A DNA stretch of 32,000 nucleotides from Candidatus Nanohalobium constans (GCF_009617975.1 NZ_CP040089.1:720001-752000); one strand, 5' to 3'. Counted from the stretch's first letter, positions 10,118 through 32,000 are shown. The notes: generated from the sequence alone by a model not told the origin. Made by a program: numbers and translations.

Positions 10118-10196
10118 CCTCCAACCCTTTATAAAACCTAGGGACAATTTAACAATTACAGAGCACAGATTTTCTTACACTAGCGTGATCAAATAA

Positions 10197-10619: not shown

Positions 10620-10672
10620 GCAACACATTTTCTTCCAAGTATTCTTATTCCAGCATCTCAAACAGTCTTTCT

Positions 10673-12250: not shown

Positions 12251-12266
12251 GAATTGATTAACCGGG

Positions 12267-12274
12267 TATAAAAA
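12267..12274 (+). promoter_or_regulatory. TATA-box-like element for rps12-rps7 (leaderless or near-leaderless transcript)
   Basis: tataaaaa is centred about 27 nt upstream of the rps12 ATG (12297). No Shine-Dalgarno lies in between. Confidence 0.5.
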
Positions 12275-12296
12275 ACTTAAGTTATCTAGTTGGGAT

Positions 12297-12719: not shown

Positions 12720-12726
12720 TCATAAA

Positions 12727-13353
12727 ATGAGCAATCCAGCAAAAATAGAAGTAGAAGACAAAGTACTCACATTCGGAAAATACGACGCAGAAGAAGTAGA
12801 AATCGGCGACGACGGACTAGTAAGGTACATCAACCTAGAAAACATCCTCTCACCGAGAAGCAAAGGAAGACATACTGAAAGACAGTTCTACAAAGCAGAA
12901 GTACCAATCACAGAGCGGCTGCTAACTCACATGTATGTAGCCGGTCACAGAGGAAACAAACACTACATCACATCCGGTAAAAACACCGGAAAAAGTGAGA
13001 AACTCTGGAATATAATCGAAGAAGTCTTCGACAACATCTACGAGCAGACCGATGAGAACCCAATCCAGGTACTCGTAGATGCTATTGAGAACTCTGCACC
13101 CGTAGAGGAAGTAGTTACCTACCAGAGAGGAGGAGCACGAGCAAGAAAAGCAGTCATCATGGCTCCTCAGAGAAGAGTAGATGTAGCGCTAAGACTACTC
13201 GTCCAAGGAGCATACGAAAAACGACTAGCAGAAAGCGAAGACGCAGTCGAGACTTTGACTAACGAACTAATCGGTGCAGCAGACGGCAACAACGAAATAA
13301 GAGCCGTCAGAACCAAAGAGCGTAAAGAAAGAGAAGCAGAAGGCGCACGATAA
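12727..13353 (+). CDS. rps7: 30S ribosomal protein uS7 (S7)
   Basis: The ORF-track frame opens at 12688, inside rps12. The ATG at 12727 has GGTGA 7 nt upstream and gives a normal 208-aa protein. S7 C-terminal signature present: IENSAPVEEVVTYQRGGARARKAV. Confidence 0.93.
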   Translation: MSNPAKIEVEDKVLTFGKYDAEEVEIGDDGLVRYINLENILSPRSKGRHTERQFYKAEVPITERLLTHMYVAGHRGNKHYITSGKNTGKSEKLWNIIEEVFDNIYEQTDENPIQVLVDAIENSAPVEEVVTYQRGGARARKAVIMAPQRRVDVALRLLVQGAYEKRLAESEDAVETLTNELIGAADGNNEIRAVRTKERKEREAEGAR

Positions 13354-13393
13354 GACCTGCTCTTTTATTTCCTTCATTCCTTTCTACTACTTA

Positions 13394-13702
13394 ATGAGTT
13401 CCGAGATTAGATTCTGCCCCAACTGTGGTTCAACGAAAGTTGAGCCTGATAGCAGTAGAACAAACATGATTGGTGGAATCATCTCAAAAAGCGATCAATG
13501 GCTCTGCAGAGAATGTGAATATCGCGGGATGATACCTAAATCTGCGCCAGAGAAGATTAAGGAAAATTCGGGGGAAATTAAATTTGAGAACACCAGTAAC
13601 TCCGAAATTGAGGCAAGCACTAGTAGAGCATACTTCAGATACTTTCTCTATGTTGGACTACCATTAAGCCTTGTTTACCTCATAACAAAGCTGATATTCT
13701 GA
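13394..13702 (+). CDS. Zinc-ribbon protein with a C-terminal TM helix (hypothetical)
   Basis: 102 aa. CPNCG...CRECEY forms a four-Cys ribbon. C-terminal hydrophobic segment YFRYFLYVGLPLSLVYLITKLIF. Confidence 0.55.
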   Translation: MSSEIRFCPNCGSTKVEPDSSRTNMIGGIISKSDQWLCRECEYRGMIPKSAPEKIKENSGEIKFENTSNSEIEASTSRAYFRYFLYVGLPLSLVYLITKLIF

Positions 13703-13782
13703 AGAAAACGACCTATGGCTAAAGCCTTTTTTAAATCTTGCAAGAGGATTTCTAGTTATAAACCAATTGGTGAATTTCGAAA

Positions 13783-15969
<2,187 letters not shown>

Positions 15970-16062
15970 CATTTTCCTCCCTCATTTTTTCATTTTCAAT
16001 TCTACATTCTATTCAGACTACAATGTTGCAAATCGATCCAAACTACCCAACTTATTTCAATC

Positions 16063-16079
16063 TACACACATAGTGTGTA
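16063..16079. promoter_or_regulatory. Perfect 7-3-7 palindrome (TACACAC ATA GTGTGTA), candidate VapB operator
   Basis: Ends 4 nt before the vapB ATG. A TATA-like ttatttca (about 16052-16059) lies about 27 nt upstream of the ATG. Type II antitoxins commonly autoregulate through promoter-overlapping palindromes. Confidence 0.45.
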
Positions 16080-16082
16080 TGT

Positions 16083-16322
16083 ATGGCGACTAGAAATATC
16101 TCCCTTGATGACGAGGCTTACAGCAGGTTGAAGAAACTGAAGAGTGAAGGAGAAAGCTTTTCGGACGTAGTTAAGAATGTGACGAGTGAAAAGTCCTGGC
16201 TGGAAGTAGCTGGCATCTGGGAAAACGAGACAGAGGAAATTAGAGAAGCTGTAGAAGAAGGTAGACAGAGATCAAGAGGTAGAAGCGACAGGATAGCGGA
16301 GAAGCTAAGTGATGAAGAGTGA
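16083..16322 (+). CDS. vapB: VapB-type antitoxin (DUF217-like)
   Basis: 79 aa. The N-terminus NISLDDEAYSRLKKLKSEGESFSDVVKNV matches the archaeal VapB/DUF217 pattern. Its stop overlaps the start of the downstream PIN gene (GTGA). Confidence 0.75.
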   Translation: MATRNISLDDEAYSRLKKLKSEGESFSDVVKNVTSEKSWLEVAGIWENETEEIREAVEEGRQRSRGRSDRIAEKLSDEE

Positions 16323-16708
16323 TCCAGGACACCTCATTCATTATAGAACTTCTGGACGGCAACAAGGCAGCAATTAACAAATTAAAGAATCTAAAAGGCG
16401 AACCGGAGAAGATATCCTCAGTTACGGTTCTGGAACTTCACGAAGGAGTTGCTAGATCCAGTAAGCCGGAAAAAGAGAGAAAGCAGGTGCTGAACGTACT
16501 TAACTCCAAGAACATTATCCAGGCGGACAGAAAAGTGATGAAGAAGGCAGGGGAGATATCCGGAAACCTTGCCAATAAAGGAGAAAGAATCGACAGAGAG
16601 GACTGCATAATAGCCGCCACAGCACTGCTCGAACAGGACCCAGTAGTAACCACAAACACGAAACACTTCGAAAGAATAGAAAACCTGGAGATAGAACCCA
16701 TAAAATAG
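16319..16708 (+). CDS. vapC: PIN-domain ribonuclease toxin VapC
   Basis: 129 aa, GTG start. Conserved acidic residues at the expected positions: QDTSFII, VLELHEG, REDCIIAATA, VVTTNTKHF. Confidence 0.85.
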   Translation: MIQDTSFIIELLDGNKAAINKLKNLKGEPEKISSVTVLELHEGVARSSKPEKERKQVLNVLNSKNIIQADRKVMKKAGEISGNLANKGERIDREDCIIAATALLEQDPVVTTNTKHFERIENLEIEPIK

Positions 16709-16718
16709 AGCATAGTCT

Positions 16719-16862
16719 ATGAACTTAGAGGAGACAGATGAAGAAAACCTGGAAGAGCGGCTAAAGGAAGGCTACAAAGCCACAGCAGAGCGAGACAGAA
16801 AGATAGCAGAAGAGATGATACACGTCTCAATCGAAGCGAACAGATACATAGACCAAGAATAA
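16719..16862 (+). CDS. 47-aa acidic ORF, possibly the remnant C-terminal half of an antitoxin
   Basis: Read by hand: MNLEETDEENLEERLKEGYKATAERDRKIAEEMIHVSIEANRYIDQE. Starts 10 nt after the vapC stop. The LKEGYxxxAE pattern recalls C-terminal tails of archaeal CopG-type antitoxins. No RHH N-terminus is present. Confidence 0.2.
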   Translation: MNLEETDEENLEERLKEGYKATAERDRKIAEEMIHVSIEANRYIDQE

Positions 16863-16885
16863 TTTTTTTACTCTTCTACTTTACT

Positions 16886-17101
16886 CTAAGATTCAGCATC
16901 CTCAACATTAACATCCTTCAAAACATCTTCCAACTTTTCTCCAATTCTGCCCTCGATACCTCTTGTATCAAACTCTCTTTCAACCATCTTCAAACGCAAG
17001 GCATCACGCAAAAGCTCAGACTTCGAGTTATAACGCCCACGCTCAACCTCTTCCTCAACAAAACGTTCAAGCTCCTCAGGCAGTTCAGTACTTACAGCCA
17101 T
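16886..17101 (-). CDS. Ribbon-helix-helix (CopG/ParD-type) antitoxin-like protein with no adjacent toxin
   Basis: From the ATG at 17101: MAVSTELPEELERFVEEEVERGRYNSKSELLRDALRLKMVERE. This matches the ParD/COG3609 RHH pattern. The ORF-track start at 17107 is a TTG. Confidence 0.7.
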   Translation of the reverse strand: MAVSTELPEELERFVEEEVERGRYNSKSELLRDALRLKMVEREFDTRGIEGRIGEKLEDVLKDVNVEDAES

Positions 17102-17193
17102 AACCAATAACTATTATTGAAAACTAAAGAAAGTTTCCACCAGACAAGACCAAAAACACAAACTTTTATAACTAAAAAGTGACAAATTAATGT

Positions 17194-17655
17194 ATGTTCA
17201 ATTGGAGAGATAAAATACCCTATCTCGGTTCAACAAAAACAGAAGATGAACTCCTTACAGAAGGATTCATGAGATCTGAAGAAACTGCTCAAGATATAAA
17301 TACGGCACGACCATCAACCAGCCAAGGAAGTAATGAACAAGATGTAGACCCTATCTATGTGGAAAACGATGAAGTATCCCACTATTTTGCAAAAGAGATT
17401 CATCAAGGACAAGACTTTCCTGGAGAAAATCCAGAAGCCTTACTTTCAAGAACTAGAGCTGTAGCAGAGGATAAAGACCACGAACTTACCGAAGATTCGA
17501 TAGACAGAGTACTTGAGTGCTATGATACAAAGGACGAGTACATAGAAGCAGCATTAGAAAATGAAGATGACTCTTACAGATCAAGAATAGACGACGCTTA
17601 TCCAGAAATACCTTCCTCACAGGAATTAGGAGAAAGAAGGTCAGACCCAGAATAA
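17194..17655 (+). CDS. Acidic hypothetical protein (153 aa)
   Basis: ORF track. TATA-like ttttataa (17164-17171) lies about 26 nt upstream of the ATG. No recognisable domain. Confidence 0.45.
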   Translation: MFNWRDKIPYLGSTKTEDELLTEGFMRSEETAQDINTARPSTSQGSNEQDVDPIYVENDEVSHYFAKEIHQGQDFPGENPEALLSRTRAVAEDKDHELTEDSIDRVLECYDTKDEYIEAALENEDDSYRSRIDDAYPEIPSSQELGERRSDPE

Positions 17656-17739
17656 GAAACTTTACAATCTCAACCACCGGTCCTTTTTAAAGTTTTAGCG
17701 GGTTATCGGTTATTATACGCTATAGGTGAAACCTTAATT

Positions 17740-19023
17740 ATGGCAGACAAACCACACATTAATCTCGTATTTATCGGACACGTTGACCACGGAAAGTCTA
17801 CTACAATCGGTAGAGTTCTGTGGGATACTGAAAACCTTCCAGAAGAAGAGATGCGCAAGCTTGAGGAGGCTGCTGAAGAAGCAGGAAAAGAAAGCTTCAA
17901 CTTCGCATTCGCAATGGACAGCCTTGAAGAAGAGCGTGAAAGAGGAGTTACAATCGACCTGGCTCACCAGGAATTCGATTCTGACAACTACCACTTCACA
18001 ATCATCGACGCTCCAGGGCACCGTGACTTCATCAAAAACATGATAACAGGAGCTTCCCAGGCAGACGCAGCAGTACTCGTAGTAGCTGCAGACGACGGAA
18101 TCCAGCCACAGACCAAGGAACACGCATACCTTGCAAAGACACTGGGAATCGACCAGCTAGCAGTCGCAGTCAACAAGATGGACCTTGCTGACTACGGAGA
18201 AGACGGTTACAACGACATCAAAGACGAAGTTTCCGAAATGATCCAGCAGGTCGGATACGACACAAGTGACATCGACTTCGTACCTATCTCCGCATTTGAC
18301 GGAGAAGGAGTAGTAGAAAACAACGAAATGGACTGGTACAGTGGTCCAACACTAGTCGACGCACTAGACGACTTCGAAGAACCTGAAAAGGCAATCGAAC
18401 TATCAACAAGAATCCCTGTCCAAGATGTATACACAATCTCCGGTATCGGAGCAGTATCCGTCGGAAGAGTAGAGACAGGAGACCTTTCACAGGGAGACGA
18501 CATCGTCTTCCAGCCAGCAAGTGACAGACTCAACCGAAACATCGGTGGAGAAGTCAAGACAATCGAAATGCACCACGAAGAAGTAGAAAGTGCAGAACCT
18601 GGCGACAACATCGGATGGAACACAAGAGGAGTCGGAGAAGACGACATCAAGAAAGGAGATGTCGCAGGACCAGCAGACAACCCACCAACAGTCGTAGATT
18701 CATTCAAGGCACAAGTCATCGTCCTAAACCACCCGAATGTCATCAGCGAAGGATACACACCAGTATTCCACGTTAACACAGCACAAGTCAGCTGTACATT
18801 CACAGATCTTCACGAGACAATGAATCCAAAGACAGGAGAGACACTCGAAGAAGACCCAGACTACATCAAACAGGGTCAGGCAGCAAAGGTAACAATCACA
18901 CCACAGCAGCCACTAGTCATCGAAGAAAACGACGACATCCCACAGATGGCACGATTCGCTATCAGAGACATGGGACAGACAGTCGGTGCAGGACAAGCAC
19001 TAGAAGTCAACGAGAAGGAATAA
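17740..19023 (+). CDS. tuf: Translation elongation factor 1-alpha (aEF-1A)
   Basis: 427 aa. GHVDHGKST, DAPGHRDF, NKMD. AGGTGA Shine-Dalgarno 12 nt upstream. Confidence 0.95.
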   Translation: MADKPHINLVFIGHVDHGKSTTIGRVLWDTENLPEEEMRKLEEAAEEAGKESFNFAFAMDSLEEERERGVTIDLAHQEFDSDNYHFTIIDAPGHRDFIKNMITGASQADAAVLVVAADDGIQPQTKEHAYLAKTLGIDQLAVAVNKMDLADYGEDGYNDIKDEVSEMIQQVGYDTSDIDFVPISAFDGEGVVENNEMDWYSGPTLVDALDDFEEPEKAIELSTRIPVQDVYTISGIGAVSVGRVETGDLSQGDDIVFQPASDRLNRNIGGEVKTIEMHHEEVESAEPGDNIGWNTRGVGEDDIKKGDVAGPADNPPTVVDSFKAQVIVLNHPNVISEGYTPVFHVNTAQVSCTFTDLHETMNPKTGETLEEDPDYIKQGQAAKVTITPQQPLVIEENDDIPQMARFAIRDMGQTVGAGQALEVNEKE

Positions 19024-19086
19024 ATTTCTTTCTCTCTTACCTTCTTTACTTATCTCACTATCTCATTCTCTACACTTATCCCAGCA

Positions 19087-19094
19087 TTTAAATA
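19087..19094 (+). promoter_or_regulatory. TATA-box-like element for the 19118 ORF
   Basis: tttaaata is centred about 28 nt upstream of the ATG at 19118. Confidence 0.4.
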
Positions 19095-19117
19095 TTGTCA
19101 CTACTAATACATAACAT

Positions 19118-19819
19118 ATGATTAATCTATTTGGTGAAGAACAAACCTCGCCAGATAGCAACTGGACGAAAGAATTTTTTACCGAAGATAGAATAGAAGA
19201 AACATTGGAGGAGGCTATCTCCCAAATTGAACAACCTCCTGCTCAGCCTAGACTTTACAGACTGCTCAACACATTGAGCAGATTTGGATATAGCTCTGAA
19301 AACTTGACAACTCTTTTGTCTCAGAGCCGAGCTGGCGATAAACAAGATAAGTTCGCCATCAAATACTTTGATTCTGAAAAAACCGAAATATTAGACTATG
19401 AAACGGCTAGAATTCAGAAAGATATAATAATAGACAACTCGGAAGAAGTCAACATAGGAGTAGAAGACAAAAGAGACAACCCTTTTCTCACTATTGGTTT
19501 AAGAGGAAAATACTGCAATCCTGCTGGACCTGATATTTCTTATGAACAGAGAAAGAGAATAGCCAATGAAATCGCTCAAGAAGAAGGCGTGTTACCAAAA
19601 GAAATCTTAGACGGCGCTCCAATATCTGATCGTATAGAATATGATGGAGAAAGGGAATATGAGACCACAATTATTGGACAAAGTCCATACTATGATTTTA
19701 TAGATCCTGAAAACCCTAGTATGCCAAAGGAAGAGGAGGATAAAGATAACTTTTACGATGCTACCTTGAATGACTCTACTAGAGATATAGATAGGGAACT
19801 TCAGAGAGAACGAGAATAA
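19118..19819 (+). CDS. Acidic hypothetical protein (233 aa) inserted between tuf and rps10
   Basis: ORF track. It has its own TATA-like element, is AT-richer than its neighbours, and has no recognisable domain. Confidence 0.5.
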   Translation: MINLFGEEQTSPDSNWTKEFFTEDRIEETLEEAISQIEQPPAQPRLYRLLNTLSRFGYSSENLTTLLSQSRAGDKQDKFAIKYFDSEKTEILDYETARIQKDIIIDNSEEVNIGVEDKRDNPFLTIGLRGKYCNPAGPDISYEQRKRIANEIAQEEGVLPKEILDGAPISDRIEYDGEREYETTIIGQSPYYDFIDPENPSMPKEEEDKDNFYDATLNDSTRDIDRELQRERE

Positions 19820-19829
19820 TCTAACACCA

Positions 19830-19837
19830 TTTATAAT
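19830..19837 (+). promoter_or_regulatory. TATA-box-like element for rps10
   Basis: tttataat is centred about 27 nt upstream of the rps10 ATG (19861). Confidence 0.45.
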
Positions 19838-19860
19838 AGTTAACTTCAGTATGTTTTGAT

Positions 19861-20169
19861 ATGCAGCAGGCGCGTGTAAAGCTTAGAAGCACTAGTCAGG
19901 AAAAAGTTGATGACCTGGCAGAAGAAATTGTAGAGATTGGCGATGAGTACGAAGCCGAGATTTCAGGACCAGTACCGTTGCCTACAAAGAACATGAACAT
20001 CACAACCAGAAAAGCTCCTGACGGAGAAGGAAGCAGCACTATTGAAAGATACGAGATGCATGTTCACAAGAGACTTATTGATGTCAAAGACTCGGAAAGA
20101 GCACTTCGACAGGTCATGCGTGTACATGTACCAGAAGGCGTAGACATTGAAATCGAACTAATGGAATAA
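19861..20169 (+). CDS. rps10: 30S ribosomal protein uS10 (S10)
   Basis: 102 aa. ARVKLRSTSQEKVDDLAEEI...GPVPLPTKNMNITTRKAPDGEGSSTIERYEMHVHKRLIDV is the S10 signature. Confidence 0.95.
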   Translation: MQQARVKLRSTSQEKVDDLAEEIVEIGDEYEAEISGPVPLPTKNMNITTRKAPDGEGSSTIERYEMHVHKRLIDVKDSERALRQVMRVHVPEGVDIEIELME

Positions 20170-22156: not shown

Positions 22157-23143
22157 TTATGGCTTGAATCTTAGTAAAGCGGCTATGCCTCCAAAGTTTT
22201 CCAGTCTTTCCCCTGCTTCATGGTCTGTATGGACTACCTGCACTTGTCCACCTTGCTGCTCTACTTTTTCCACCAGTTTTTTGTCCTCCCTCTTCTTTTT
22301 AGGCGTAACCAGTAGTTCTTCGACAGCACCCATCTCAACCAAGTCCTCGACAGGCTCTCCATAAGAGGCTAGCCCATCCTTCCTCAGCTCTTCCAAGAAT
22401 TCTTCCATTATGGCGGATTCATCTGAGATACGGGAGTCTTTAACAACCTTATCTAAAGCCCCACGCTTAATTGCTTCGTGAAGCCCTGTCTTTCCTGTTA
22501 CCGATGTATCCTGCATCATGATTTTTTCACTGACTTGATCATTCAGCATGTTTTCCAGACGGTCTTTAGAAAATCCTGGACCCGCTAGTACTATTTTGTC
22601 AACTTTCTCGGCTGTTCTCTCGATATATTTTTTGGCTTCTTGGAAGAAGGATGCTCCGCTGTCTTGGTCATCGTAGAGTTTTCCTGGGATGTTTTGATCC
22701 ATCTTGGATAGGTCTTTGATTCCTGATTCTTCCACTATGTAGAAGTCGGCTTCTCCTTTCTGTACCAGGCAGAACAGTACTGTGTAAGGTTCTTTCTGCT
22801 CAGCTTCCAGAAGGTTTTCCCATTCTTCGTCGGTGAAGTTTTTGTACAGTTTGAATCTTTTTCCCGGTTCGATGTTGAATGTGTGGTATCCTAGTTCGAT
22901 GTCTTCTGCTCCTTCTGAGATCTCTCCAGTAACTCTCAACCTGTCCTCTTGGTACTCCAGTTTCTCTACCTTCAGTGTGAGGGTGCAGGTCTTCTTCTCT
23001 CTGCCGTCGAGCTTGGTTCTCTGCGTCTTCATCCTGACACTGTCACCTTCCTGGACTATCTCCTTCAGGAACCAGAGATCATCCTGATTCTCAACCTCAA
23101 CCTGGGCAAATCCTTCCTCTCTATCTTTTTTGAGTAGCTTCAT
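22157..23143 (-). CDS. pelA: Pelota/Dom34 (no-go and non-stop mRNA decay factor)
   Basis: eRF1-like three-domain protein. From the ATG at 23143: MKLLKKDREEGFAQVEVENQDDLWFLKEIVQEGDSV. The ORF-track start at 23176 adds 11 non-conserved residues and would overlap the shared TATA element. Confidence 0.85.
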   Translation of the reverse strand: MKLLKKDREEGFAQVEVENQDDLWFLKEIVQEGDSVRMKTQRTKLDGREKKTCTLTLKVEKLEYQEDRLRVTGEISEGAEDIELGYHTFNIEPGKRFKLYKNFTDEEWENLLEAEQKEPYTVLFCLVQKGEADFYIVEESGIKDLSKMDQNIPGKLYDDQDSGASFFQEAKKYIERTAEKVDKIVLAGPGFSKDRLENMLNDQVSEKIMMQDTSVTGKTGLHEAIKRGALDKVVKDSRISDESAIMEEFLEELRKDGLASYGEPVEDLVEMGAVEELLVTPKKKREDKKLVEKVEQQGGQVQVVHTDHEAGERLENFGGIAALLRFKP

Positions 23144-23162
23144 ACACTTGGAATTGGACGGG

Positions 23163-23173
23163 TAAAATAAAAA
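23163..23173. promoter_or_regulatory. Shared AT-rich TATA-like element between the divergent pelota and surface-cluster genes
   Basis: taaaataaaaa lies about 25 nt from the pelota ATG (23143, minus strand) and about 27 nt from the 23195 ATG (plus strand). Confidence 0.4.
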
Positions 23174-23194
23174 CATGGACGGGAAAAACCGGTT

Positions 23195-24334
23195 ATGGAC
23201 GACGGTTTTCCGATTGTAGTGGTTCTAGGACTGGCAGTTTTCGGAATGATATGGGTTGGCACAGAGGCAGGAGACGGATTTAACCTAGGCGGAAGCGACG
23301 CCGAAAGCATGATACTACTGTCCGAAAACCCGGGCACAATAGGCCAGTCTAATGAGGACTTCAGAACCACCAAGTTCGGAAGCTTCACGGTAGGAGAGGC
23401 ACGAGGAAATGTCCAGGCATACACCGCAGAAGATTTCAGGCTTTCAAACGGCTTATTCAGCGGAGACAAAATCACCGTCAACTACGATGCAACACAGCCC
23501 GGTCAAGGACAGGTAAGCTTCGAAGTACTCGGAAGAGAAGCCAAAGGAGAGATATTCGTAAAAGTAAACGGCAACCAGGTTTTCAGCGCCGCAACAGTTT
23601 CAGGAGCAACACCGGAAATCAATATATCAAAAAGACACTTCAAAAACGGGGAGAACAAGGTCGTGATCGGAACCACCCAACCAAACCCACTGAAGAAAGC
23701 AGTTTACAGCATCGAAGATATCGAAGTCACAGTAGAGGACAGAAAATTCCATGACTACACAGGATACTTCCAAATGTACCAACACGAACTAGACAGTTTC
23801 AGACCCAGCAACCTCACATTCCAAGTACCACTAGACCAATCAGTACCGCAAAAACCACTCGAAATACAGATCAACAACCAAGAAATATTCAATCAGAAGC
23901 TAGGAAGATCAACACAACAAGTCACAGTCACACCACAAAACGCCGACCTCTCAACAGGATACAACACCATAAAATTCTCCACAGACGGAGAATCATACTA
24001 CAGAATCCAAAACGCAGAACTCCAGACACGATACTCAGTAAACGTAAAACCAGCACAGACAAACTTCGAATTCAACCTAGACGAAGAAACACTAAACTAC
24101 GCACAAAGAGACAACACCAAAGAAGAGCTTAGATTCCAATACCAAAAAACAACAACCGCAGAACCAATACAACTCCAAATAAACAACCAATACCAACAAA
24201 TAAAACCAGAAAACGGATTTAATACAGTAGAAATAAACAGCGACGCACTACAAAGAGAAAACACTTTAACACTAAACAGCAACCAGACATTCACAGTAGA
24301 TGATATGCAAATAATCTCAGAAAAAGAAGAATAA
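23195..24334 (+). CDS. N-terminally TM-anchored extracellular protein with three internal repeats (hypothetical)
   Basis: 379 aa. N-terminal hydrophobic helix FPIVVVLGLAVFGMIWVG. Three modules match the pattern xIxVxxNxxxxF/I...G(x)N(T)xxF/I...xIxxxxL: GEIFVKVNGNQVF..., PLEIQINNQEIFNQ..., PIQLQINNQYQQI.... Confidence 0.6.
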   Translation: MDDGFPIVVVLGLAVFGMIWVGTEAGDGFNLGGSDAESMILLSENPGTIGQSNEDFRTTKFGSFTVGEARGNVQAYTAEDFRLSNGLFSGDKITVNYDATQPGQGQVSFEVLGREAKGEIFVKVNGNQVFSAATVSGATPEINISKRHFKNGENKVVIGTTQPNPLKKAVYSIEDIEVTVEDRKFHDYTGYFQMYQHELDSFRPSNLTFQVPLDQSVPQKPLEIQINNQEIFNQKLGRSTQQVTVTPQNADLSTGYNTIKFSTDGESYYRIQNAELQTRYSVNVKPAQTNFEFNLDEETLNYAQRDNTKEELRFQYQKTTTAEPIQLQINNQYQQIKPENGFNTVEINSDALQRENTLTLNSNQTFTVDDMQIISEKEE

Positions 24335-24365
24335 ACCACTCAATCATGCCTGCTGATGACTTCAA

Positions 24366-26621
24366 ATGAGAAACAGAAGACAACGACCACCTAACAGCGA
24401 AAACAAAGAAAGCCTATATCAACGGCTTACTGAAAACACACTATTTCTAATATTTATTTCTTTTACCCCCCTCAATATAGAAGTAGGAGACGCTCTCATA
24501 TATTTCAAGAGAATTTTCCTAGGTCCAAACCGGCTTAATAACGTAAAAAACTTTATAATAAATCTAACGTGGTTTATAGACGACATTATAGCCATTTTTG
24601 GAACTGGCGGCGCAGGTTTATTTATCCCAAGCATAGATAAAGAAGTTCTAAAACTGGCAAAGAAATACTTGCCAAAATCAATAGTGAATAAAGCCGGAAA
24701 ACTGGACTCAATGCTACCGGATGTAATCAAAGAAAAAGCAAAGGAACAAGCAAAAGAGGAAGCACAGAATAAATTCCAGCATAACGGACAAACAGTTGTG
24801 CCAGACGGTGGAGAACAATACCCGGAAAGTAATGTTAGAAGGAGAAATGAGTTAAGGTATGATGATGAGCGTCACAGTGTTGAATGGTTGAGATCCATTT
24901 TTTCTACAGGTTATAGGTTAGCATCGAAAGCTATTATCCCTGTATTGATCCTAGGTTTGATTGGTGGAGGAATCTTGATGTTTAGTGGTGGAGGCGGTTA
25001 TATGGGTCTTCTTGGTGATATGTTTGGTAGTGAGACTAGTCAGGCGGGCAATGCTTTTTCTGATTTTGGTGAGGTTATTGGTTTTCAGGCAGGTAAGTTT
25101 GGTAAGACGTTGAGTTGTTTTGGTGATGCGGGTTGTATCAAGGAGTGGGAGTTGAATAATACTCAGGAGCCTGGGTCTAATGATGTAGGTGAGACGTATG
25201 AGTTGAGGGTTGATGGTTTCAATGTTTTCGGTGCTGATCAAAGTTTTGATGTTGCTTACCAGGCTCCCGGGACAGGGATACCGATTTCTTTCTTGTTGAA
25301 GAATACTAGGCATCAGTTGAAGGGTATTGATGCTAGGAATGTTTCTTACCGTTTGCGTATTACTGAGACCAAGTTTGCCAGTGGAAGTGATGATCAGTGT
25401 AGTAGTGGGTGGATTTCTCTGCAGAAATACGGTCAGGATGTGGATGGTCTTGGAGAAGGTAACGCTAACAACTTGCTTTTGCCTGGTGAGAGTGCTGAGC
25501 CATTGAACTGGCAGGAGGAGGACATGAGTCTGGCGGACTGTGGTCTGCTTCAGCCTGGTCCAAGTAACAGTTTTGATGCTTTGCTGCAGGTAAAGTACAA
25601 TTACAGTTCTCATTCGATCCTTCAGATTGATGCTATGAGCAACAGGCACAGGAATGAGGAGAACATAGAGAGGGATAGGAAGAACTCTGATGCAGTGGAT
25701 ACTCCTGTCCAGTCATATATTGCTACTCGGAACCCTATGACATTTAGCGAAGTAAACGGCGATAGGATTGATAGACCTCAACAGTTTGAAGTAGGAATCA
25801 GCACTGACGAAAATGATGTATCGTACAAGGTAGATGCTGAAAGCTTTGAGTTCAAAGACTCATCCCTGACCGACCACGTGGAATCAGAGTGTTCAGGACT
25901 TGTTAAGGCTGATGAGGGCGGTGAGAACATGTTTGAGCTTAATAAATCAGTGAAAGAAGATATCGGTGACAGGCAGGAAGACAGTTGGTTCGATAAGAGG
26001 AGTAGCGCCGTAAAAGCGTTTTGCAACTTCGAATTTAATGACCCTGAGGAAATAAGCGCCACCGGCGAGACCTTGACATTTACAGCTGAAGCAGACTACC
26101 AATTGAAGCTTTCAGAGCACAGAACCAGTTTCAAAGTTAGAAACACTAGATGTACTACAGAGAACTGTCCAATGCTCAAACCTGTCAGCGAGAACCTGGA
26201 TACTATAGTGCAGACAGACTTAGATGACCAAGACATCAACCGTAGCAGCGAAGATTACAGAGACAAACAGTATGCTATCTGCGGGAGACCTCAAGATGAT
26301 GAAGACGGATGTTCCGTGCTAAAAAACGGGTTCAAAGATAGAAGCAGCTTGGTAGAAGAAAATAGAGAGGAAGAAAGTAGAGAAAATGGTGCAGACTTAG
26401 TGGTTGAAGAAGGAAATATTGCGGTTAAGACATCCGCAATCGATGATTCAAAGGCATTTACCTGCGACGCCAAACAGAAGAGCTTCAATAACTCTGTGGT
26501 GCAGTTTGAACCAGATGAACTAATAGATGCTATTGATGAAGTAGGGAACAAAGCTTTGAACTACAGCAGAGGAGACTGGGATATGGTTGATTTAGAGAAA
26601 CCTGGCATAACCTGCAAATAA
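24366..26621 (+). CDS. Large membrane-associated, Cys-rich extracellular protein (hypothetical, 751 aa)
   Basis: Long uninterrupted ORF. Hydrophobic segments near the N-terminus and at AIIPVLILGLIGGGILMF, followed by an acidic ectodomain with repeated Cys pairs: CFGDAGC, RCTTENCP, ICGRPQDDEDGC. Contains beta-strand-like YxY motifs also seen in the downstream lipoproteins. Confidence 0.6.
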   Translation: MRNRRQRPPNSENKESLYQRLTENTLFLIFISFTPLNIEVGDALIYFKRIFLGPNRLNNVKNFIINLTWFIDDIIAIFGTGGAGLFIPSIDKEVLKLAKKYLPKSIVNKAGKLDSMLPDVIKEKAKEQAKEEAQNKFQHNGQTVVPDGGEQYPESNVRRRNELRYDDERHSVEWLRSIFSTGYRLASKAIIPVLILGLIGGGILMFSGGGGYMGLLGDMFGSETSQAGNAFSDFGEVIGFQAGKFGKTLSCFGDAGCIKEWELNNTQEPGSNDVGETYELRVDGFNVFGADQSFDVAYQAPGTGIPISFLLKNTRHQLKGIDARNVSYRLRITETKFASGSDDQCSSGWISLQKYGQDVDGLGEGNANNLLLPGESAEPLNWQEEDMSLADCGLLQPGPSNSFDALLQVKYNYSSHSILQIDAMSNRHRNEENIERDRKNSDAVDTPVQSYIATRNPMTFSEVNGDRIDRPQQFEVGISTDENDVSYKVDAESFEFKDSSLTDHVESECSGLVKADEGGENMFELNKSVKEDIGDRQEDSWFDKRSSAVKAFCNFEFNDPEEISATGETLTFTAEADYQLKLSEHRTSFKVRNTRCTTENCPMLKPVSENLDTIVQTDLDDQDINRSSEDYRDKQYAICGRPQDDEDGCSVLKNGFKDRSSLVEENREEESRENGADLVVEEGNIAVKTSAIDDSKAFTCDAKQKSFNNSVVQFEPDELIDAIDEVGNKALNYSRGDWDMVDLEKPGITCK

Positions 26622-26628
26622 CAAACTT

Positions 26629-27213
26629 TTAGAGCAGCAGGAGAGTGAAGTTTCTTAATGCCATAGAACCACCTAGGACAAAAACCAGTTTGAATAGTAT
26701 GTCTGCCTCAACCCTGCCAAAGTTTTTATCAGCCCATATCAACGGCAAGAAAACCAGCAAAGCCTTAGGAATAATCAAACCAGGAACCATTCCAAACTGG
26801 CTCATCAAATAGGCTACGAACGGATTGGCTTCACGTAGAGAACCGTGTGAAAAAGTAGAGACAATATCCATGACGTGTGAAAAAAGCGCGGCAGCAAAAA
26901 GTTTTCTCTCAAAAAAATTGATTGGGACGAACAGAAAGGCAAAAACGAAAACAGATGCAAGGAACTCAGGGACAAAACCTGAGGAAGCAACAAACAAACA
27001 TATTGCCAGTAAAAATGTTTCATCCAGACCAAAATTTTGGTTTAAACTGTGGATAGCTGCTGCAACAGCCGATAAGAGAAGACCTGTTAAACCAAACTGG
27101 ATTACCGAGTGTAGAAAACCGAGCTGGAGGGAGACTGCGGCAGCCAATCCAGAATACAGGAATAGCCGTAGAAGAGTCTGATTTCTCAGAAATCTTTTAA
27201 TCCAAGCCTCCAT
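26629..27213 (-). CDS. Polytopic membrane protein, DUF5658-like C-terminal region
   Basis: I prefer the start at M34 of the ORF-track frame (ATG at 27213), which avoids overlap with the divergent gene. The HVMDIVSTFSHGSLREANPF...GLIIPKAL pattern resembles DUF5658 (D..T....g..E.NP....K). Confidence 0.5.
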   Translation of the reverse strand: MEAWIKRFLRNQTLLRLFLYSGLAAAVSLQLGFLHSVIQFGLTGLLLSAVAAAIHSLNQNFGLDETFLLAICLFVASSGFVPEFLASVFVFAFLFVPINFFERKLFAAALFSHVMDIVSTFSHGSLREANPFVAYLMSQFGMVPGLIIPKALLVFLPLIWADKNFGRVEADILFKLVFVLGGSMALRNFTLLLL

Positions 27214-27223
27214 AACCTTAGGT

Positions 27224-28087
27224 ATGGATAGCAAAGTAATAATATTGATTGCGTTAGCCAGCATAGCAAGCGGATGTGCTGACACAGGAGGCGGAACAGG
27301 TATTTCAATCAAAGAGCTTAACGTGGAGCCAAGTCAAATCAGCGCTGACTCCACCGCAGTAGTCAACTTCGAAGCAGTGAACAACGGAAACCTGGCTGGA
27401 GAAGTCAATACCGGTTCCAACGGCACGGAAATAATGACAAACTACTGTTCTGACATATTCAAAATAGAAGATTTCAGATCCTCCGCAACAAAACCAAGCA
27501 GTAACGAAAACCAGTACAAGTTAGAGACAGGTGACAGGCTTAGACTAACCTGGATGCTAGACCAAAACAAACCTGGAGAAATACCTTTACAGGGCTATCC
27601 ATGCGACCTCAAGTTCCAGTTACCGTTCAACTACTCAGTAAAGGCATACAAACAGATACAGGTCAAGCAGGACAGAGAAGCAGATGGCAGCCCTAACCTA
27701 GGAAGCGATATTTCAGAAGGTCCTCTAAGCATAGACATGGAAGTCATTGGAAGCACGTCAAACCAGAGAGACACAGTACTGAAGCGGGACAATGCCTCAA
27801 TCTACCTTACCGCACACAACACTGACGACGAAGACAGCAGCTTCAGAGGACTAATCAAGATACAGAACATCAGTATAAGCTCCAGCGGCAAAATCCAGGT
27901 AAACAAGGACTGCGGTGAAAAAGGAAGCGTAGACCTAGCATCAGGAAAAGAGAAAATATACAGATGCCAGATAAAACATGATGAATTCGATACACCAAGC
28001 ATTAGAGGAGAAGTCGAAGCAGAGATCAACTACACTTTTGTGAAAGACCTAGGCTCAAAATCAATCCAGGTGAAATACAATGGATAA
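27224..28087 (+). CDS. Lipobox surface protein paralogue 1 (287 aa)
   Basis: Signal peptide ending LASIASGC, then a G/T-rich tether, then the CARDB-like segment ISIKELNVEPSQISADSTAVVNFEAVNNGNLAGEV. Overlaps the next gene by 8 nt. Confidence 0.7.
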   Translation: MDSKVIILIALASIASGCADTGGGTGISIKELNVEPSQISADSTAVVNFEAVNNGNLAGEVNTGSNGTEIMTNYCSDIFKIEDFRSSATKPSSNENQYKLETGDRLRLTWMLDQNKPGEIPLQGYPCDLKFQLPFNYSVKAYKQIQVKQDREADGSPNLGSDISEGPLSIDMEVIGSTSNQRDTVLKRDNASIYLTAHNTDDEDSSFRGLIKIQNISISSSGKIQVNKDCGEKGSVDLASGKEKIYRCQIKHDEFDTPSIRGEVEAEINYTFVKDLGSKSIQVKYNG

Positions 28088-28874
28088 CAAAATAATCCTT
28101 ACAGCCATTCTAGCCCTAGCTGCATCAGGATGCATGGACAGCACAAACCCTGGTGGAGGAAGCGGAAACGGAATACAGGTAGAAAAATTCTCCATAACAG
28201 ATGACACACTAAATCCAAATCAGAAAACAGTAATAGAAGCAAAAATACGCAACTACAACAAAGCCCCAACAACCCTGAACTCCGAGAACATAACCCTATT
28301 CAACACCGGACAACTAAAGGTACAGGAAGACAGCAAAAACTGCAACCCCAAGAAAATCAGCAACTCCGACCAAGACATAAACCCTGTCATCAGATGCACC
28401 TGGAATGTAGAAGCACCTGGAAAATCCTTCATAGAAGGCTTCGACTCAAAACCTCTTTCAGTCAAACTTCAGATAAGATACAGCTCCACAGTCGAAAACA
28501 ACCAACCTCTGAAAATAAACTTCCAAAATATGTCAGAAATCAAGGAAAGCAGCCCAATAAAAACCACAGCAAGCAACAACGACCTAAAAATGAGCATAGA
28601 AACACAGACACCCTCACCAGTAACAACTCCAGAAACCCTGACAGTCAAAACAGCAAACACCGGAGTAGGCAGCATAAAGGGCAAAATAAAAATCAAATGC
28701 AGCCCAGAAAAACTGTTCTCAGAATGCCCACAAGAAAAAACCCCGATACAAGACCAAACAAGATTCAATTTAAACGCAGAAACAGAGCTAACAGGCACCC
28801 AGAACATCTTTATCTCCACACATTATAAATACGAGAAGAATCCAAACCTTGACATAGAGGTCGTAAACAACTGA
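28080..28874 (+). CDS. Lipobox surface protein paralogue 2 (264 aa)
   Basis: Signal peptide ending LALAASGC, a G/S tether, then IQVEKFSITDDTLNPNQKTVIEAKIRNYNKAPTTL. Its stop overlaps the next ATG (TGATG). Confidence 0.7.
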   Translation: MDNKIILTAILALAASGCMDSTNPGGGSGNGIQVEKFSITDDTLNPNQKTVIEAKIRNYNKAPTTLNSENITLFNTGQLKVQEDSKNCNPKKISNSDQDINPVIRCTWNVEAPGKSFIEGFDSKPLSVKLQIRYSSTVENNQPLKINFQNMSEIKESSPIKTTASNNDLKMSIETQTPSPVTTPETLTVKTANTGVGSIKGKIKIKCSPEKLFSECPQEKTPIQDQTRFNLNAETELTGTQNIFISTHYKYEKNPNLDIEVVNN

Positions 28875-30022
28875 TGAACAACACAAAACAATTAATAATC
28901 CTTTTCACGATAGCAGTAGCAGCATCAGGATGCGCAAACACAACGCCAAGCAACACAGACTCCCAGTCAACCACGACATTCATCGACGTTAATACTTTTG
29001 AAGCAATACCTAACCCCGTTCCATCCGGAGAACAAATCACTCTAGACATGGAACTTGAAAACACGGGAGACGCAGAAGCAGAAGACGTAGCCGCACGAAT
29101 ATTCGGACCATCTGTAATCAACCAGAAAAGCGCCGGAGAAAGAACAAAATCACTTGGCAACCTGAGATCTTCATCAGATACCTCATTCCCAGGACGCACA
29201 AGCTGGAGCATAAACACAAATCAGCTAAGCTCCAACCGTGAAGTAAACTACGACATAAACGCCAACATATTCTACGGATACGAAACACGCGCAGACACAG
29301 AATTCAAGTTCGTATCACGAGAAAGATTCAGAGAACAAGACTACAGTCGCGGAGAAGCAACAATAGAAAACTCAGAAGCACCAATAGAAATAGGAATAAG
29401 AGGAACAACACCAATAACCTTCGACAGCAACGAAGGAAACCCAAGCGAACAAGTCTGCATAACAGTCGAAAACACAGGAAGCGGACAAGCATTCACAGAC
29501 GGAGACAACGCAGAAAGCCGAGAATACAACCTCAACGACGCAGAAAAAGACACAGTTGAACTAGTAATAGACGAAATAGCCGGCATGGAAATGGAACCAG
29601 AAGAAAACACAGACGTAGAAAACAACGCAAGAAACGGAGAAGAAGCAAGAGTAGACGTCAACCTGATAGAAGGTACCGAAGGATGGCAATGCTTCACACT
29701 CCGCCCAGAAGAAAGCCTACAAAACTCAGAAACAGACGTAAACACCCTCATAACAGCAGAATACAACTACAAAGAAGAAACCAGCACATCCGCCACAGTA
29801 GAAGGAAGAAGAGGCGACTCATCCAACTCAGACGGAGAAGATGGGGATACATGGAAGTACAAAGACAGTGCTGATTTAGATAGTAATGATTATGAAGCAC
29901 TTGAAACAAGTTGGGAGGATATAGAAGATGGAAGCGATCCGTCTGAAACCTGTCCTGCGCTCAGAGATACTGACACCGAGGCGGCTGAAGACAAATTTGA
30001 AGAACTTTGTAGTGAAGAATGA
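28874..30022 (+). CDS. Lipobox surface protein paralogue 3, with an extra acidic Cys-containing C-terminal tail (382 aa)
   Basis: Signal peptide ending IAVAASGC, an S/T tether, then FIDVNTFEAIPNPVPSGEQITLDMELENTGDAEAEDV. Its stop overlaps the next ATG (ATGA). Confidence 0.7.
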   Translation: MNNTKQLIILFTIAVAASGCANTTPSNTDSQSTTTFIDVNTFEAIPNPVPSGEQITLDMELENTGDAEAEDVAARIFGPSVINQKSAGERTKSLGNLRSSSDTSFPGRTSWSINTNQLSSNREVNYDINANIFYGYETRADTEFKFVSRERFREQDYSRGEATIENSEAPIEIGIRGTTPITFDSNEGNPSEQVCITVENTGSGQAFTDGDNAESREYNLNDAEKDTVELVIDEIAGMEMEPEENTDVENNARNGEEARVDVNLIEGTEGWQCFTLRPEESLQNSETDVNTLITAEYNYKEETSTSATVEGRRGDSSNSDGEDGDTWKYKDSADLDSNDYEALETSWEDIEDGSDPSETCPALRDTDTEAAEDKFEELCSEE

Positions 30023-31323
30023 TGGAAAGTAGAAAAAAATCACTAGGCTTATTTTTTATCTTACTTACTTCTATTGCCTTGGCTGCAGGCTTCTCATATA
30101 ATACTCCGTTAGATGGCGGTGAAAGTGGTTTAGAACTTATTCAAACATATTCAACCGAAACAATACCTGGAACGACGGATAACGAACTTCAGACATTGAA
30201 GACACTATCAAGCTGCTACCTTCTGAATGATATTGAAACATTGGGAGATTGCATAGATAGTTACGAGGAAGACATGCCAGTGGGCGTGGAAGAGGTTTTG
30301 GATATTGATAATGATGAGGAAGATTCTTCTGATCCAGGGGACGCTGAGGTTGATGATTACCTTCAGTTGGATGAGGGTGGTACCCGGATAGAGTCTTCTG
30401 AGGTTGGGGATGGCAGCGACCTGGTTGTTGAGTTGGATGTTAGTATAGGTGATGAGGTTAGGGATTATGGTTCGAGACCGACTTTCAATCTTATGAGAGA
30501 TGGTGAGGAGGTTTCTTCGATTTCTGTGAAGTGGGATGAAGGAACGGTTGAGTTTCCTTGGAGTGATATATGGAATGGAGAAAGGGAAGATGATGTGAAT
30601 TTTGATTTAGAGATGGAGGGAAGCGAGAGTGGAGATGCCCATTGGAAGAGGCAGATAATCAATGATATAGGTACAGTAGATATCAGTCGTTGTGGCTCCG
30701 ATCATGTTTACAGCAGTTTCCATGATAAGTATGGTATTACAGGGTTTGATGATTGTATTGAAGTTAACGAAGGTTTATCTGATTCAGTTGAGGATATTCA
30801 TGATGAGACAGGATGGAGTTTGGAAGCAGAGCAGAGTGTGATCCATACTATTTCATCTGTCAGTAGTTCAGATGGTGATGAAGACAGAACACTTGAAATT
30901 AACACCGGGGACTCGGGCTTCTGCGGCAGAATTTACTTTGAAAACAACTTTGACGGCGGGGAAGGAGAATACACCTTTGATGCCGAAATGGTTGAAATGG
31001 GAGGTAACCATGACCCGCAGGAATTTATTATAGAGGTTAACAAAGACGAGGTAAAATCTGCAAATATTGGCGGCGGAGGCTCAAATTCGTTCAATGTTGA
31101 ACTTGAGGATGGAGACCTGGTAAGAGTAGGGATCAACGGATATGGAGATAAGTCGTACGATGAGAGACCTCCTCTCGGATGTAACAGTTATCAGTCAAGA
31201 ACCCATGTGGCAGTCGATGTCCCAGGCAACTTCAAAAGTGGTGAGGACAGCTCATCATCAAACGACTGCACAATATACGAAGAGGGAAGCAGAAACAGAC
31301 AACAATGCGAAAGATACAGCTAA
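30019..31323 (+). CDS. Extremely acidic secreted protein with 8 Cys (434 aa, hypothetical)
   Basis: N-terminal signal/anchor KKSLGLFFILLTSIALAAG. D/E-rich throughout, with eight spaced cysteines. G/T-ending codon style, unlike the three genes upstream. Confidence 0.65.
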   Translation: MMESRKKSLGLFFILLTSIALAAGFSYNTPLDGGESGLELIQTYSTETIPGTTDNELQTLKTLSSCYLLNDIETLGDCIDSYEEDMPVGVEEVLDIDNDEEDSSDPGDAEVDDYLQLDEGGTRIESSEVGDGSDLVVELDVSIGDEVRDYGSRPTFNLMRDGEEVSSISVKWDEGTVEFPWSDIWNGEREDDVNFDLEMEGSESGDAHWKRQIINDIGTVDISRCGSDHVYSSFHDKYGITGFDDCIEVNEGLSDSVEDIHDETGWSLEAEQSVIHTISSVSSSDGDEDRTLEINTGDSGFCGRIYFENNFDGGEGEYTFDAEMVEMGGNHDPQEFIIEVNKDEVKSANIGGGGSNSFNVELEDGDLVRVGINGYGDKSYDERPPLGCNSYQSRTHVAVDVPGNFKSGEDSSSSNDCTIYEEGSRNRQQCERYS

Positions 31324-31333
31324 ATAAAAAATT

Positions 31334-31356
31334 GAGGAGAAAAATTTGTTCTCCTC
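31334..31356. terminator. Hairpin flanked by an A-run and a T-run between convergent genes (candidate bidirectional terminator)
   Basis: GAGGAGAA-aaatttg-TTCTCCTC is an 8-bp perfect stem. It is preceded by aaaaaatt and followed by tcttttt. Confidence 0.45.
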
Positions 31357-31361
31357 TCTTT

Positions 31362-32000
31362 TTACCATTCTCTTACTAGGATGGCTGCTGTGATTACTAG
31401 TGCTAGTAGGATAGCTGCTGTTAGTTTGACTAGGTTGCCTGATGTTTGTAGGTTTCCTAGTGCTTGGCTGAATTGTCCTGTGATTCCGTTACTTAGTTGG
31501 TTGGAGTTGTCTTGGATTGCTTCTTCTATTTCTTTGCCTATGACTAGTTCTACTGTCTGACTTGTTGTGGTGTTGGTTCCTGTTGCTGTTGCTGTGATTT
31601 GGACGTTTCCTTCTTTCTTGAATGGGATTCCTGCGTACATGTAGGCAGTGCTTGTCTGTCCTGCGCCAACTGTCAGGTTGCTTGGTTTGATGTTGACCCA
31701 TTCTGGTCCTTCGTAGGCTAGTTCGTAGGTGTTTTCCTGTGTTCCTGTGTTTTCTAGTTGGACTTCGTAGACTACTGAACGGTTTTCTCCTGCGCTTGCT
31801 ACTTCAGGTACGACGTTCATTGATACATCCCAGCAGTTTTCTACATTTACTGTGGTTGTCCCTGTCTTGACTGGTTCTTCGTATGTTGATGCTGTTGCTG
31901 TTGTCTTTACTTTGTAGTTTCCTGTTTCTAGTGTTGTTGCGTCGACTAGCGTGGTTATTTCTGCGGTTTCTCCTGGTTGGATTTCTGCTTCCTGTGTCTG
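31362..32000 (-). CDS. CARDB/COG1361-like cell-surface protein, C-terminal part with a TM anchor; the gene continues beyond the right edge
   Basis: The ORF track starts at the M at 31820, but I translated 31821-32000 in the same frame and found no stop (QTQEAEIQPGETAEITTLVDATTLETGNYKVKTTATAS...). Repeated motif xxPGExxxxxxxVxNTG. C-terminal helix LVKLTAAILLALVITAAILV. Confidence 0.65.
   Translation of the reverse strand, partial: QTQEAEIQPGETAEITTLVDATTLETGNYKVKTTATASTYEEPVKTGTTTVNVENCWDVSMNVVPEVASAGENRSVVYEVQLENTGTQENTYELAYEGPEWVNIKPSNLTVGAGQTSTAYMYAGIPFKKEGNVQITATATGTNTTTSQTVELVIGKEIEEAIQDNSNQLSNGITGQFSQALGNLQTSGNLVKLTAAILLALVITAAILVREW

Follow-up and report, generated by a model that had tools for sequence, protein, structure and literature searches.

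The stretch of DNA analyzed here (hereafter the window) comprises 32,000 nucleotides of the chromosome of Candidatus Nanohalobium constans LC1Nh (973,463 bp), a cultivated ectosymbiont of Halomicrobium that contacts and stretches the envelope of its host (PMC7443923). From position 23195 to its end, the window carries eight genes, designated G1 to G8, which an earlier note, made from the sequence alone, had described as a cluster of membrane-tethered, lipobox, or secreted proteins from a probable episymbiont of haloarchaea. All eight open reading frames (ORFs) were found with the features described, and the source organism bears out the guess at the lineage. In the deposited annotation, G1 (QGA80793) and G4, G5, and G6 (QGA80796-98) are all "hypothetical." None of the eight proteins (0/8) reached the curated cutoff of any Pfam or NCBIfam model, and an Rfam scan of the window found nothing. 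Detectable homology within the cluster (hhalign) joins just G4, G5, and G6 and one segment of G2; homology of G1 or G8 to the lipoproteins was rejected (hhalign, ≤4%). The N-G and Y-x-Y motifs that had been proposed as a shared signature hold within the lipoprotein family, where N53, Y270, and Y272 are nearly invariant in 145 sequences, and no detectable homology links G1 or G8 to it.

The central gene, G3 (26629-27213, minus strand), encodes a polytopic membrane protein. Its true start is M34 (27213), 10 bp from the G4 start; this choice matches the orthologues, and G3 is therefore 194 amino acids (aa) long and does not overlap G4. The protein falls short of two Pfam families, with 21.6 bits against PF01889 (DUF63, now AliA_AliB; profile positions 152-264 of 269; cutoff, 25) and 19.3 bits against PF18902 (DUF5658; cutoff, 25.2). 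A homologue search with G3 alone found nothing. AliA (HVO_2859; arCOG02177) is needed for the lipidation of lipobox proteins in Haloferax volcanii (PMC12462473), and HVO_2859 has been annotated as a "DUF63 family protein" (PMC9426492). Two arginines are among the conserved residues of AliA that are putatively catalytic.

Thirteen loci for comparison were taken from the contigs of the only seven G2 homologues found in an indexed protein search and from a GTDB scan with a G1 alignment, a scan that did not return N. constans itself. In sister nanohaloarchaeal lineages, the G3 slot holds, on the same strand, a protein of 259 to 271 aa. The one at locus L002 is a full-length member of PF01889 (146 bits, profile positions 1-266 of 269), and those at L007, L011, and L013-L015 match the family hidden Markov model (HMM) over its full length. 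The Nanohalobium group (the window, L001, L004, L005, L008, and L010) has short forms of 187 to 199 aa in this slot. G3 is, as judged from its sequence, a shortened AliA derivative, because the profiles of six short and six long forms match (hhalign, 96.8%; E = 2.6e-10; C-terminal 88 columns) and because the H and D of an H-x-x-D motif, an E, a G, a K, another G, and a C-terminal R are invariant in 14 sequences (short forms, long forms, and two AliA proteins of Aenigmarchaeota). Slot, strand, and head-to-head partner are the same in all loci, so that orthology with AliA by position and descent agrees with the profile comparison. H113, D116, E128, K150, and the C-terminal R187 of G3 are common to both forms, and in the short forms the invariant E stands within an E-x-N-P motif (E128-x-N130-P131 in G3). 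About 55 columns after the first transmembrane (TM) helix, including the GGxxR loop with the first Arg of the long forms, are deleted from the short forms, as is a further short segment. G3 is also the fastest-evolving gene of the cluster (29 to 34% identity within the genus).

These results change the view that the cluster has no link to known biology, as its central gene is a positional orthologue of a lipidation factor. The statement that no enzymatic domain is recognizable is true only at curated thresholds, since G3 descends from the AliA family. The label "DUF5658-like" also needs correction: G3 is polytopic and has a subthreshold PF18902 match, the short forms scoring 19 to 24 bits (23.8 for L001) and the L004 and L005 orthologues carrying a recorded DUF5658 match, but by position it is an orthologue of AliA.

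Divergent from G3 are three lipobox genes on the plus strand. G4 (27224-28087) has the Sec-type lipobox IASGC (Cys18) and invariant Cys at 75, 127, 230, and 248; G5 (28080-28874) has AASGC (Cys18) and five Cys; and G6 (28874-30022) has AASGC (Cys20) and a core with three Cys, to which an acidic C-terminal tail adds two. The joins G4/G5, G5/G6, and G6/G7 overlap by 8, 1, and 4 bp, which confirms the overlapping stop and start codons reported to link the three genes to the acidic protein G7. Their description as paralogues is upheld by hhalign (G4/G5, 98.5% over 218 columns; G5/G6, 98.2% over 185 columns). The lipobox Cys is kept in all orthologues of G4 to G6, and all three proteins are predicted from sequence to start with a signal peptide that leads into a lipobox in which the Cys is invariant.

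A search with one profile of mature G5, G4, and G6 against 1.84 billion cluster representatives defined a lipoprotein family of 166 representatives, for which there is no Pfam model. The lipobox column holds Cys in 140 of the 145 sequences aligned, at a median position of 20. Position -1 is G in 136/145 and position -2 is S in 118/145 (S or A), while -3 holds A, V, or T (in most cases A or V and not L/V/I). Only 4/145 members have a twin-arginine-like motif, and Cys counts are mostly 5, 3, or 7. UniRef labels G6 as CARDB containing; CARDB (PF07705) matched 3/145 family members weakly and none of the window proteins. The G5 orthologue of locus L010 (8917-9693) departs from the usual lipobox with LLTTAC, in which both -3 and -2 are Thr; its neighbors keep SGC.

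An AlphaFold2 model of G4 built from 145 family sequences (predicted local distance difference test [pLDDT], 92.3; predicted TM-score [pTM], 0.83) is all beta, with two tandem immunoglobulin (Ig)-like sandwiches. Foldseek against the PDB retrieved generic tandem Ig folds only (E = 3e-5 to 3e-3; TM-scores, ≤0.25; identity, 8 to 12%), among them integrin alpha legs, the MSCRAMM adhesins Cnm, CNA, ClfB, and SdrG, the CEP192 SPD-2 domain, and invasin. The four invariant non-lipobox Cys of G4 are compatible with two disulfides.

The starts of G3 and G4 lie head-to-head, 5 to 13 bp apart, in 12/12 loci compared. The sequence CTTTTAA (27194-27200, plus strand), centered 27 nucleotides (nt) before the G4 ATG and inside the G3 codons I-K-R-F, may be the TATA box of a leaderless mRNA for G4 to G7. 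CTTTTAA or TTTTTAA is found 24 to 30 nt ahead of the G4 ATG in 12/12 loci, which is the spacing expected of an archaeal TATA box for a leaderless mRNA. The A/T-rich element TATTATTA (27237-27244, minus strand), centered ∼27 nt before the G3 start and inside the signal-peptide codons of G4, is a putative TATA box for G3, and an A/T box is present at this mirror position in most orthologous loci. Both boxes probably act as promoters. Because each lies inside the opposite gene, the two promoters would be interleaved, and each transcription would cross the TATA box of the other.

The N-terminal motif [IV]K[RNS]F of nanohaloarchaeal AliA and G3 proteins (27194-27213 in the window, minus-strand codons 1-7 of G3; L001-L015) is encoded by the reverse complement of the CTTTTAA box. 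As it coincides with the box on the opposite strand, the motif may be kept for the promoter and not for the protein, and it was not used as evidence of homology between short and long forms of G3. AliA proteins of Aenigmarchaeota do not have the motif, and their genes start 30 to 33 bp from the neighboring gene.

On the other side of G3 lie G1 and G2, which probably form one operon. G1 (23195-24334, plus strand) is the best conserved gene of the module. Its 379-aa product has a short N terminus, one TM segment (residues 4 to 22), and a Cys-free ectodomain of three jelly rolls. Its description as a TM-anchored three-repeat protein was well founded: residues 122-276 match residues 224-373 (hhalign, 97.4%), and an AlphaFold2 model from 15 orthologues (pLDDT, 82.9), in which the TM helix is not modeled, has beta domains at 38-186, 188-285, and 287-377. 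Foldseek matched these to galactose-binding or carbohydrate-binding module (CBM)-like jelly rolls, including accessory domains of beta-galactosidases, reelin repeats, Cry toxin domains, BcsB, and CBM22 (TM-scores, ≤0.26), and no PDB chain resembled G1 by sequence profile. Within the genus, G1 proteins are 62 to 67% identical, as are those of the neighboring HtrA.

The N-terminal region of G1 ahead of the hydrophobic stretch comprises just 3 to 5 residues and is often acidic. Phe5 (window 23195-23215), directly ahead of the TM segment, is invariant from Nanohalobium to Aenigmarchaeota. A prepilin-like (class III) signal was considered and rejected; the residue ahead of Phe5 can be G, A, R, K, N, or S in orthologues, which leaves no G/A cleavage site that is conserved.

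G2 (24366-26621, plus strand) agrees with its earlier description as a 751-aa Cys-rich membrane protein. Its N-terminal membrane region is followed by a TM segment (189-207) and a Cys-rich ectodomain (about 245-660), and the protein has 12 Cys in total. Ten of these are invariant in 12 orthologues and fall in a conserved region of ∼400 aa after the TM segment, while the N-terminal membrane region is highly variable among orthologues. Residues 395-466 resemble residues 118-189 of G6 (hhalign, 78.6%); no PDB chain resembled G2 by sequence profile. The GenBank model of G2 (LC1Nh_0912) is 636 aa long, implying a start at M116. The 115 additional upstream codons (window 24366-24710) align with the hydrophobic N-terminal regions of orthologues, and in relatives the G2 start abuts or overlaps the G1 stop. 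On these two observations, the deposited gene model is probably too short, and we favor the longer ORF.

The last two genes lie outside the conserved core. G7 (30019-31323, plus strand) is translationally coupled to G6 and has an N-terminal hydrophobic segment; it is indeed very acidic (23% D+E), with the eight Cys ascribed to it. It has counterparts only in L001, L004, and L008, and these are barely similar (with L001, the match is confined to the first ∼90 aa); L002, L005, L007, L010, L011, and L013-L015 do not have it. G7 is thus a variable add-on. G8 (31362-32000, minus strand), of which the window holds the 3′ part and which continues beyond it, is an Ig-repeat protein. It had been called CARDB-like, convergent, and C-terminally anchored; it is convergent with G7, has a C-terminal TM anchor, and has an Ig-like match (FixG_C, E = 8e-5), but it does not match CARDB. 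Its orthologues are ∼580 aa long with several Ig-like matches. G8 is a conserved neighbor in Nanohaloarchaeota and is absent from the loci of Aenigmarchaeota.

In every nanohaloarchaeal locus that is long enough, HtrA, Pelota (minus strand), G1, G2, G3 (minus strand), G4, G5, and G6 follow one another in the same order and orientation. For G1 to G6, order and orientation are fixed in ∼20 distinct nanohaloarchaeal loci, with one-to-one orthology. After G6, most loci continue with G8 (minus strand) and then with a very large PKD/CarboxypepD_reg protein. A metagenome scan with an alignment of the long AliA forms retrieved 80 loci, which were annotated with HMMs; module genes are present in 24/80. 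Fifteen of the 80 are nanohaloarchaeal loci with module genes, one of them a contig of Nanohaloarchaeum antarcticus (L030), and nine combine a more distant AliA with G1-like genes, G6-like lipobox genes, or both, and often with Pelota. Of the 10 AliA loci from other lineages whose flanks extend for 4 kb or more on each side, none had module genes, and only one had a lipobox-like ORF nearby. The association is therefore lineage specific and not general to aliA.

Some members of the lipoprotein family come from metagenome-assembled genomes of Aenigmarchaeota, in which two arrangements were seen. The first consists of Pelota (minus strand), a 363-aa protein, a 1078-aa membrane protein, AliA (minus strand), and four lipobox proteins; the second consists of a 383-aa protein, a 434-aa membrane protein, AliA (minus strand), and two lipobox proteins. 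By hhalign, the 383-aa protein (98.4% over 351 columns) and the 363-aa protein (89.2%) are homologous to G1, and the lipobox proteins match the G6 family HMM (E = 7e-43 to 4e-31). Membrane proteins fill the G2 slot, one of them with a weak lipoprotein-like domain (56%). Pfam gave no match for the G1 homologues, G2-slot proteins, or lipobox proteins of Aenigmarchaeota. Given the fixed order of G1 to G6 and the recurrence of the core in a second phylum, the cluster passes the test of co-conservation proposed in the earlier note; this holds for the core, whereas G7 is not co-conserved and G8 is missing from Aenigmarchaeota.

Two further features of these loci merit mention. Pelota adjoins the G1 homologue divergently in the window (22157-23176, minus strand), in L016 (108-1106), and in L049, L065, L068, and L069, an unexpected tie between a ribosome-rescue gene and an envelope module that spans Nanohaloarchaeota and several Aenigmarchaeota-type loci. 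In L016 (11747-12979, minus strand) and L018 (11433-12695, minus strand), the gene for a protein of 410 to 420 aa with an MJ0043_C domain directly follows the last of the lipobox genes and is read from the other strand. In L018, a gene of the inositol monophosphatase (IMPase) family, reported as a frequent neighbor of aliA, lies 2.5 kb beyond it.

We consider it somewhat probable that G1 to G6 represent an ancestral envelope module of Nanohaloarchaeota and Aenigmarchaeota that would combine an AliA-type enzyme, its lipoprotein substrates, and anchored partners. At the center of this module would stand the AliA-family gene, reduced in Nanohalobium to the 194-aa core of G3. On one side, the divergent operon would supply the lipobox paralogues G4 to G6, each predicted to have two tandem Ig-like sandwiches and conserved pairs of Cys; on the other, the G1-G2 operon would supply the three CBM-like jelly rolls of G1 and the 10-Cys ectodomain of G2 with its one G6-like domain. 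In the proposed sequence of events, Sec would export G4 to G6, the adjacent AliA-type enzyme would lipidate them at Cys+1, and they would stay on the outer face of the membrane and join G1 and G2 in a tethered layer or complex of beta-sandwiches. Such a layer could serve as an envelope scaffold, possibly one that binds glycans. That G4 to G6 are the substrates of the neighboring enzyme is what we infer from this arrangement. The earlier proposal of a coordinated set of tethered beta-sandwich surface proteins is supported by the fixed order and orientation of G1 to G6 and by the recurrence of the core in Aenigmarchaeota.

Several points weigh against this reading. Pelota and, in Nanohaloarchaeota, HtrA share the synteny; conserved order alone is therefore no proof of a functional link. 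G3 is below the PF01889 cutoff, is ∼70 residues short, including the loop with the first conserved Arg, and evolves fastest; it may therefore be on the way to losing its function. In Aenigmarchaeota, conservation of the G2 family could not be detected beyond its slot and the weak lipoprotein-like domain. A second, full-length AliA in N. constans would also count against the proposed role of G3; a scan of 119 kb of Nanohalobium-group sequence did not find one. Finally, the physical assembly of G1, G2, and G4 to G6 is purely an idea that we infer.

The function originally suggested for the cluster was host attachment, in which the proteins would form a cell-cell interface apparatus that binds the surface of the haloarchaeal host. 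The likeness of the G4 model to tandem Ig-fold adhesins and integrin legs, and that of G1 to carbohydrate-binding jelly rolls, would suit such a role, and the contact with and stretching of the host envelope by the ectosymbiont N. constans (PMC7443923) would suit it as well. Both phyla that bear the module are also DPANN lineages thought to depend on hosts. Against this, the structural matches are to generic folds with TM-scores of ≤0.25, and the core is conserved across two phyla from very different habitats, presumably with different hosts, while evolving at HtrA-like rates. The strain variability that might be sought in an attachment device is not apparent in the core genes; the sole variable gene is G7, which is not co-conserved. 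Moreover, a role in host interaction has been proposed in N. constans for strain-specific PKD/LamG proteins (PMC7443923). Nothing found here specifically supports attachment, and we regard it as unlikely. Cross-phylum conservation, moderate rates, and lack of strain variability suggest that the module belongs to the core equipment of the envelope and is not an attachment device particular to strains, although host contact may be one use of the assembly.

A second alternative concerns G3 alone, which might be a decaying remnant or have some other membrane function, with another enzyme lipidating G4 to G6 in Nanohalobium. Its shortening, subthreshold Pfam score, and rapid evolution would suit this reading, and some archaea with many lipoproteins have neither AliA nor AliB, implying other pathways (PMC12462473). 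Nevertheless, the reading frame is intact in six Nanohalobium-group loci, the intramembrane polar residues H, D, E-x-N-P, K, and R are invariant despite an overall identity of ∼30%, and both the position of the gene and its promoter arrangement are kept. This alternative as a whole seems rather improbable to us.

It is also conceivable that the gene order was simply inherited without shared function, the genes being mere neighbors in small, slowly rearranging genomes. The housekeeping genes that share the synteny, Pelota in both phyla and HtrA in Nanohaloarchaeota, are what one would expect if this were so. The flanks differ, however: on the left, EF-1alpha and S10 are found in some loci and ribosomal proteins and SecY in others, and the right side varies too, whereas the block survives across phyla. 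Tight coupling is kept as well, in overlapping stop and start codons and in head-to-head starts 5 to 13 bp apart, and a lipidation-factor gene beside three lipobox genes is a functional match. We therefore judge inheritance without shared function to be quite improbable. Solute-binding lipoproteins of an uptake system or a pilus- or secretion-like machine are largely refuted and highly improbable, for although archaeal lipoproteins are often substrate-binding proteins and the G1 N terminus (short n-region, Phe, hydrophobic stretch) is superficially prepilin-like, in no locus does a permease, ATPase, PilB, PilC, or prepilin-peptidase gene lie in or beside the module, the fold of G4 is tandem Ig-like and not that of a substrate-binding protein, and the residue before Phe5 of G1 varies.

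Two observations concern the window at large. Plus-strand AT skew is very strong (0.3 to 0.5) at 3000-20000 and 23000-30000, where co-oriented genes for RNA polymerase, translation factors, and surface proteins have heavily A-rich coding strands. The interval between EF-2 and EF-1alpha (window 16000-17700; L001 1304-2061; L005 2523-3453) varies among relatives, with a 153-aa acidic ORF in the window (17194-17655), a MazE/PemK toxin-antitoxin pair in L001, and a ParD-like antitoxin and small ORFs in L005.

No paper describing the G1-G6 module was found in the literature. Archaeal lipoprotein biogenesis received its first components, AliA and AliB, in 2025; one component of the module belongs to a family characterized in that year, and the other proteins have no Pfam model. 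At this locus, an AliA gene is naturally paired, in more than one phylum, with a single specific lipoprotein family and two anchored proteins, which gives defined candidates for its substrates and interactors. G3, as a naturally minimized AliA, would mark the residues that survive reduction and would tie DUF5658 to AliA. The locus also provides conserved surface proteins, seemingly abundant and not covered by Pfam models, from DPANN archaea that depend on hosts and whose envelopes have hardly been characterized, and if the complex mediates envelope integrity or contact, it would be a concrete target in the N. constans-Halomicrobium coculture. A bolder version of the proposal, which we consider a long shot, is that an undescribed DPANN envelope complex (G1 as anchor, G2, and G4 to G6) needs for its assembly a dedicated AliA, encoded in the module itself, that has been reduced in Nanohalobium to an active DUF5658-type core of ∼190 aa. 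If this were true, DUF5658 proteins at large would be minimal enzymes for the transfer of lipid to lipoproteins, and the "missing" lipidation enzymes of archaea with lipoproteins but no AliA or AliB might be sought among them.

Compared with known systems, the module does not resemble a set of substrate-binding proteins of the ATP-binding cassette (ABC) type, given the fold of G4 and the absence of transporter genes from all loci, and G1 differs from type IV pilin-like proteins in having no conserved [KRDE][GA] cleavage motif, with no PilB, PilC, or peptidase genes seen. The check for ABC-transporter or S-layer-biogenesis homology that the earlier note had proposed found neither. CBM or galactose-binding jelly-roll arrays (BcsB, reelin repeats, and accessory domains of glycosidases) are closer, as G1 has three jelly rolls and a single TM anchor, and BcsB is likewise a TM-anchored extracytoplasmic array; G1 differs in its TM-scores of ≤0.26, in the absence of sequence similarity to PDB entries, and in having no synthase partner. 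Tandem Ig adhesins and integrin alpha legs (Cnm, CNA, ClfB, SdrG, and invasin), like archaeal surface domains of the CARDB type, share the two stacked beta-sandwiches of the G4 model, but TM-scores and identity are low, G4 is not a member of these families by sequence, and it would be anchored by lipid and not to a wall.

The bacterial Lgt and lipoprotein pathway follows the same logic as the proposed module, in which a Sec signal peptide leads to a lipobox Cys and a polytopic enzyme of the membrane attaches a membrane lipid; there is no detectable homology to Lgt, and the archaeal lipid would be ether-linked archaeol. DUF5658 (PF18902), a family of small membrane proteins, shares the E-x-N-P motif with the short G3 forms at 19 to 24 bits, but G3 of the window is below the cutoff, and the DUF5658-AliA link runs through short-form bridging sequences only. 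AliA/AliB (PF01889; arCOG02177/arCOG02178; HVO_2859, HVO_2611) differ from G3 in length (∼260 to 290 aa versus 194 aa), in the loop after TM1 that G3 does not have, and in score (21.6 bits versus the cutoff of 25), and the reported neighborhoods of aliA (IMPase, GldA, and SpoIIM) are unlike the G1-G6 module. Nonetheless, G3 occupies the slot of the full-length AliA of sister lineages and shares with it the C-terminal module with invariant H-x-x-D, E, K, and R-N residues, and aliB genes are often found near lipoprotein genes (PMC12462473).

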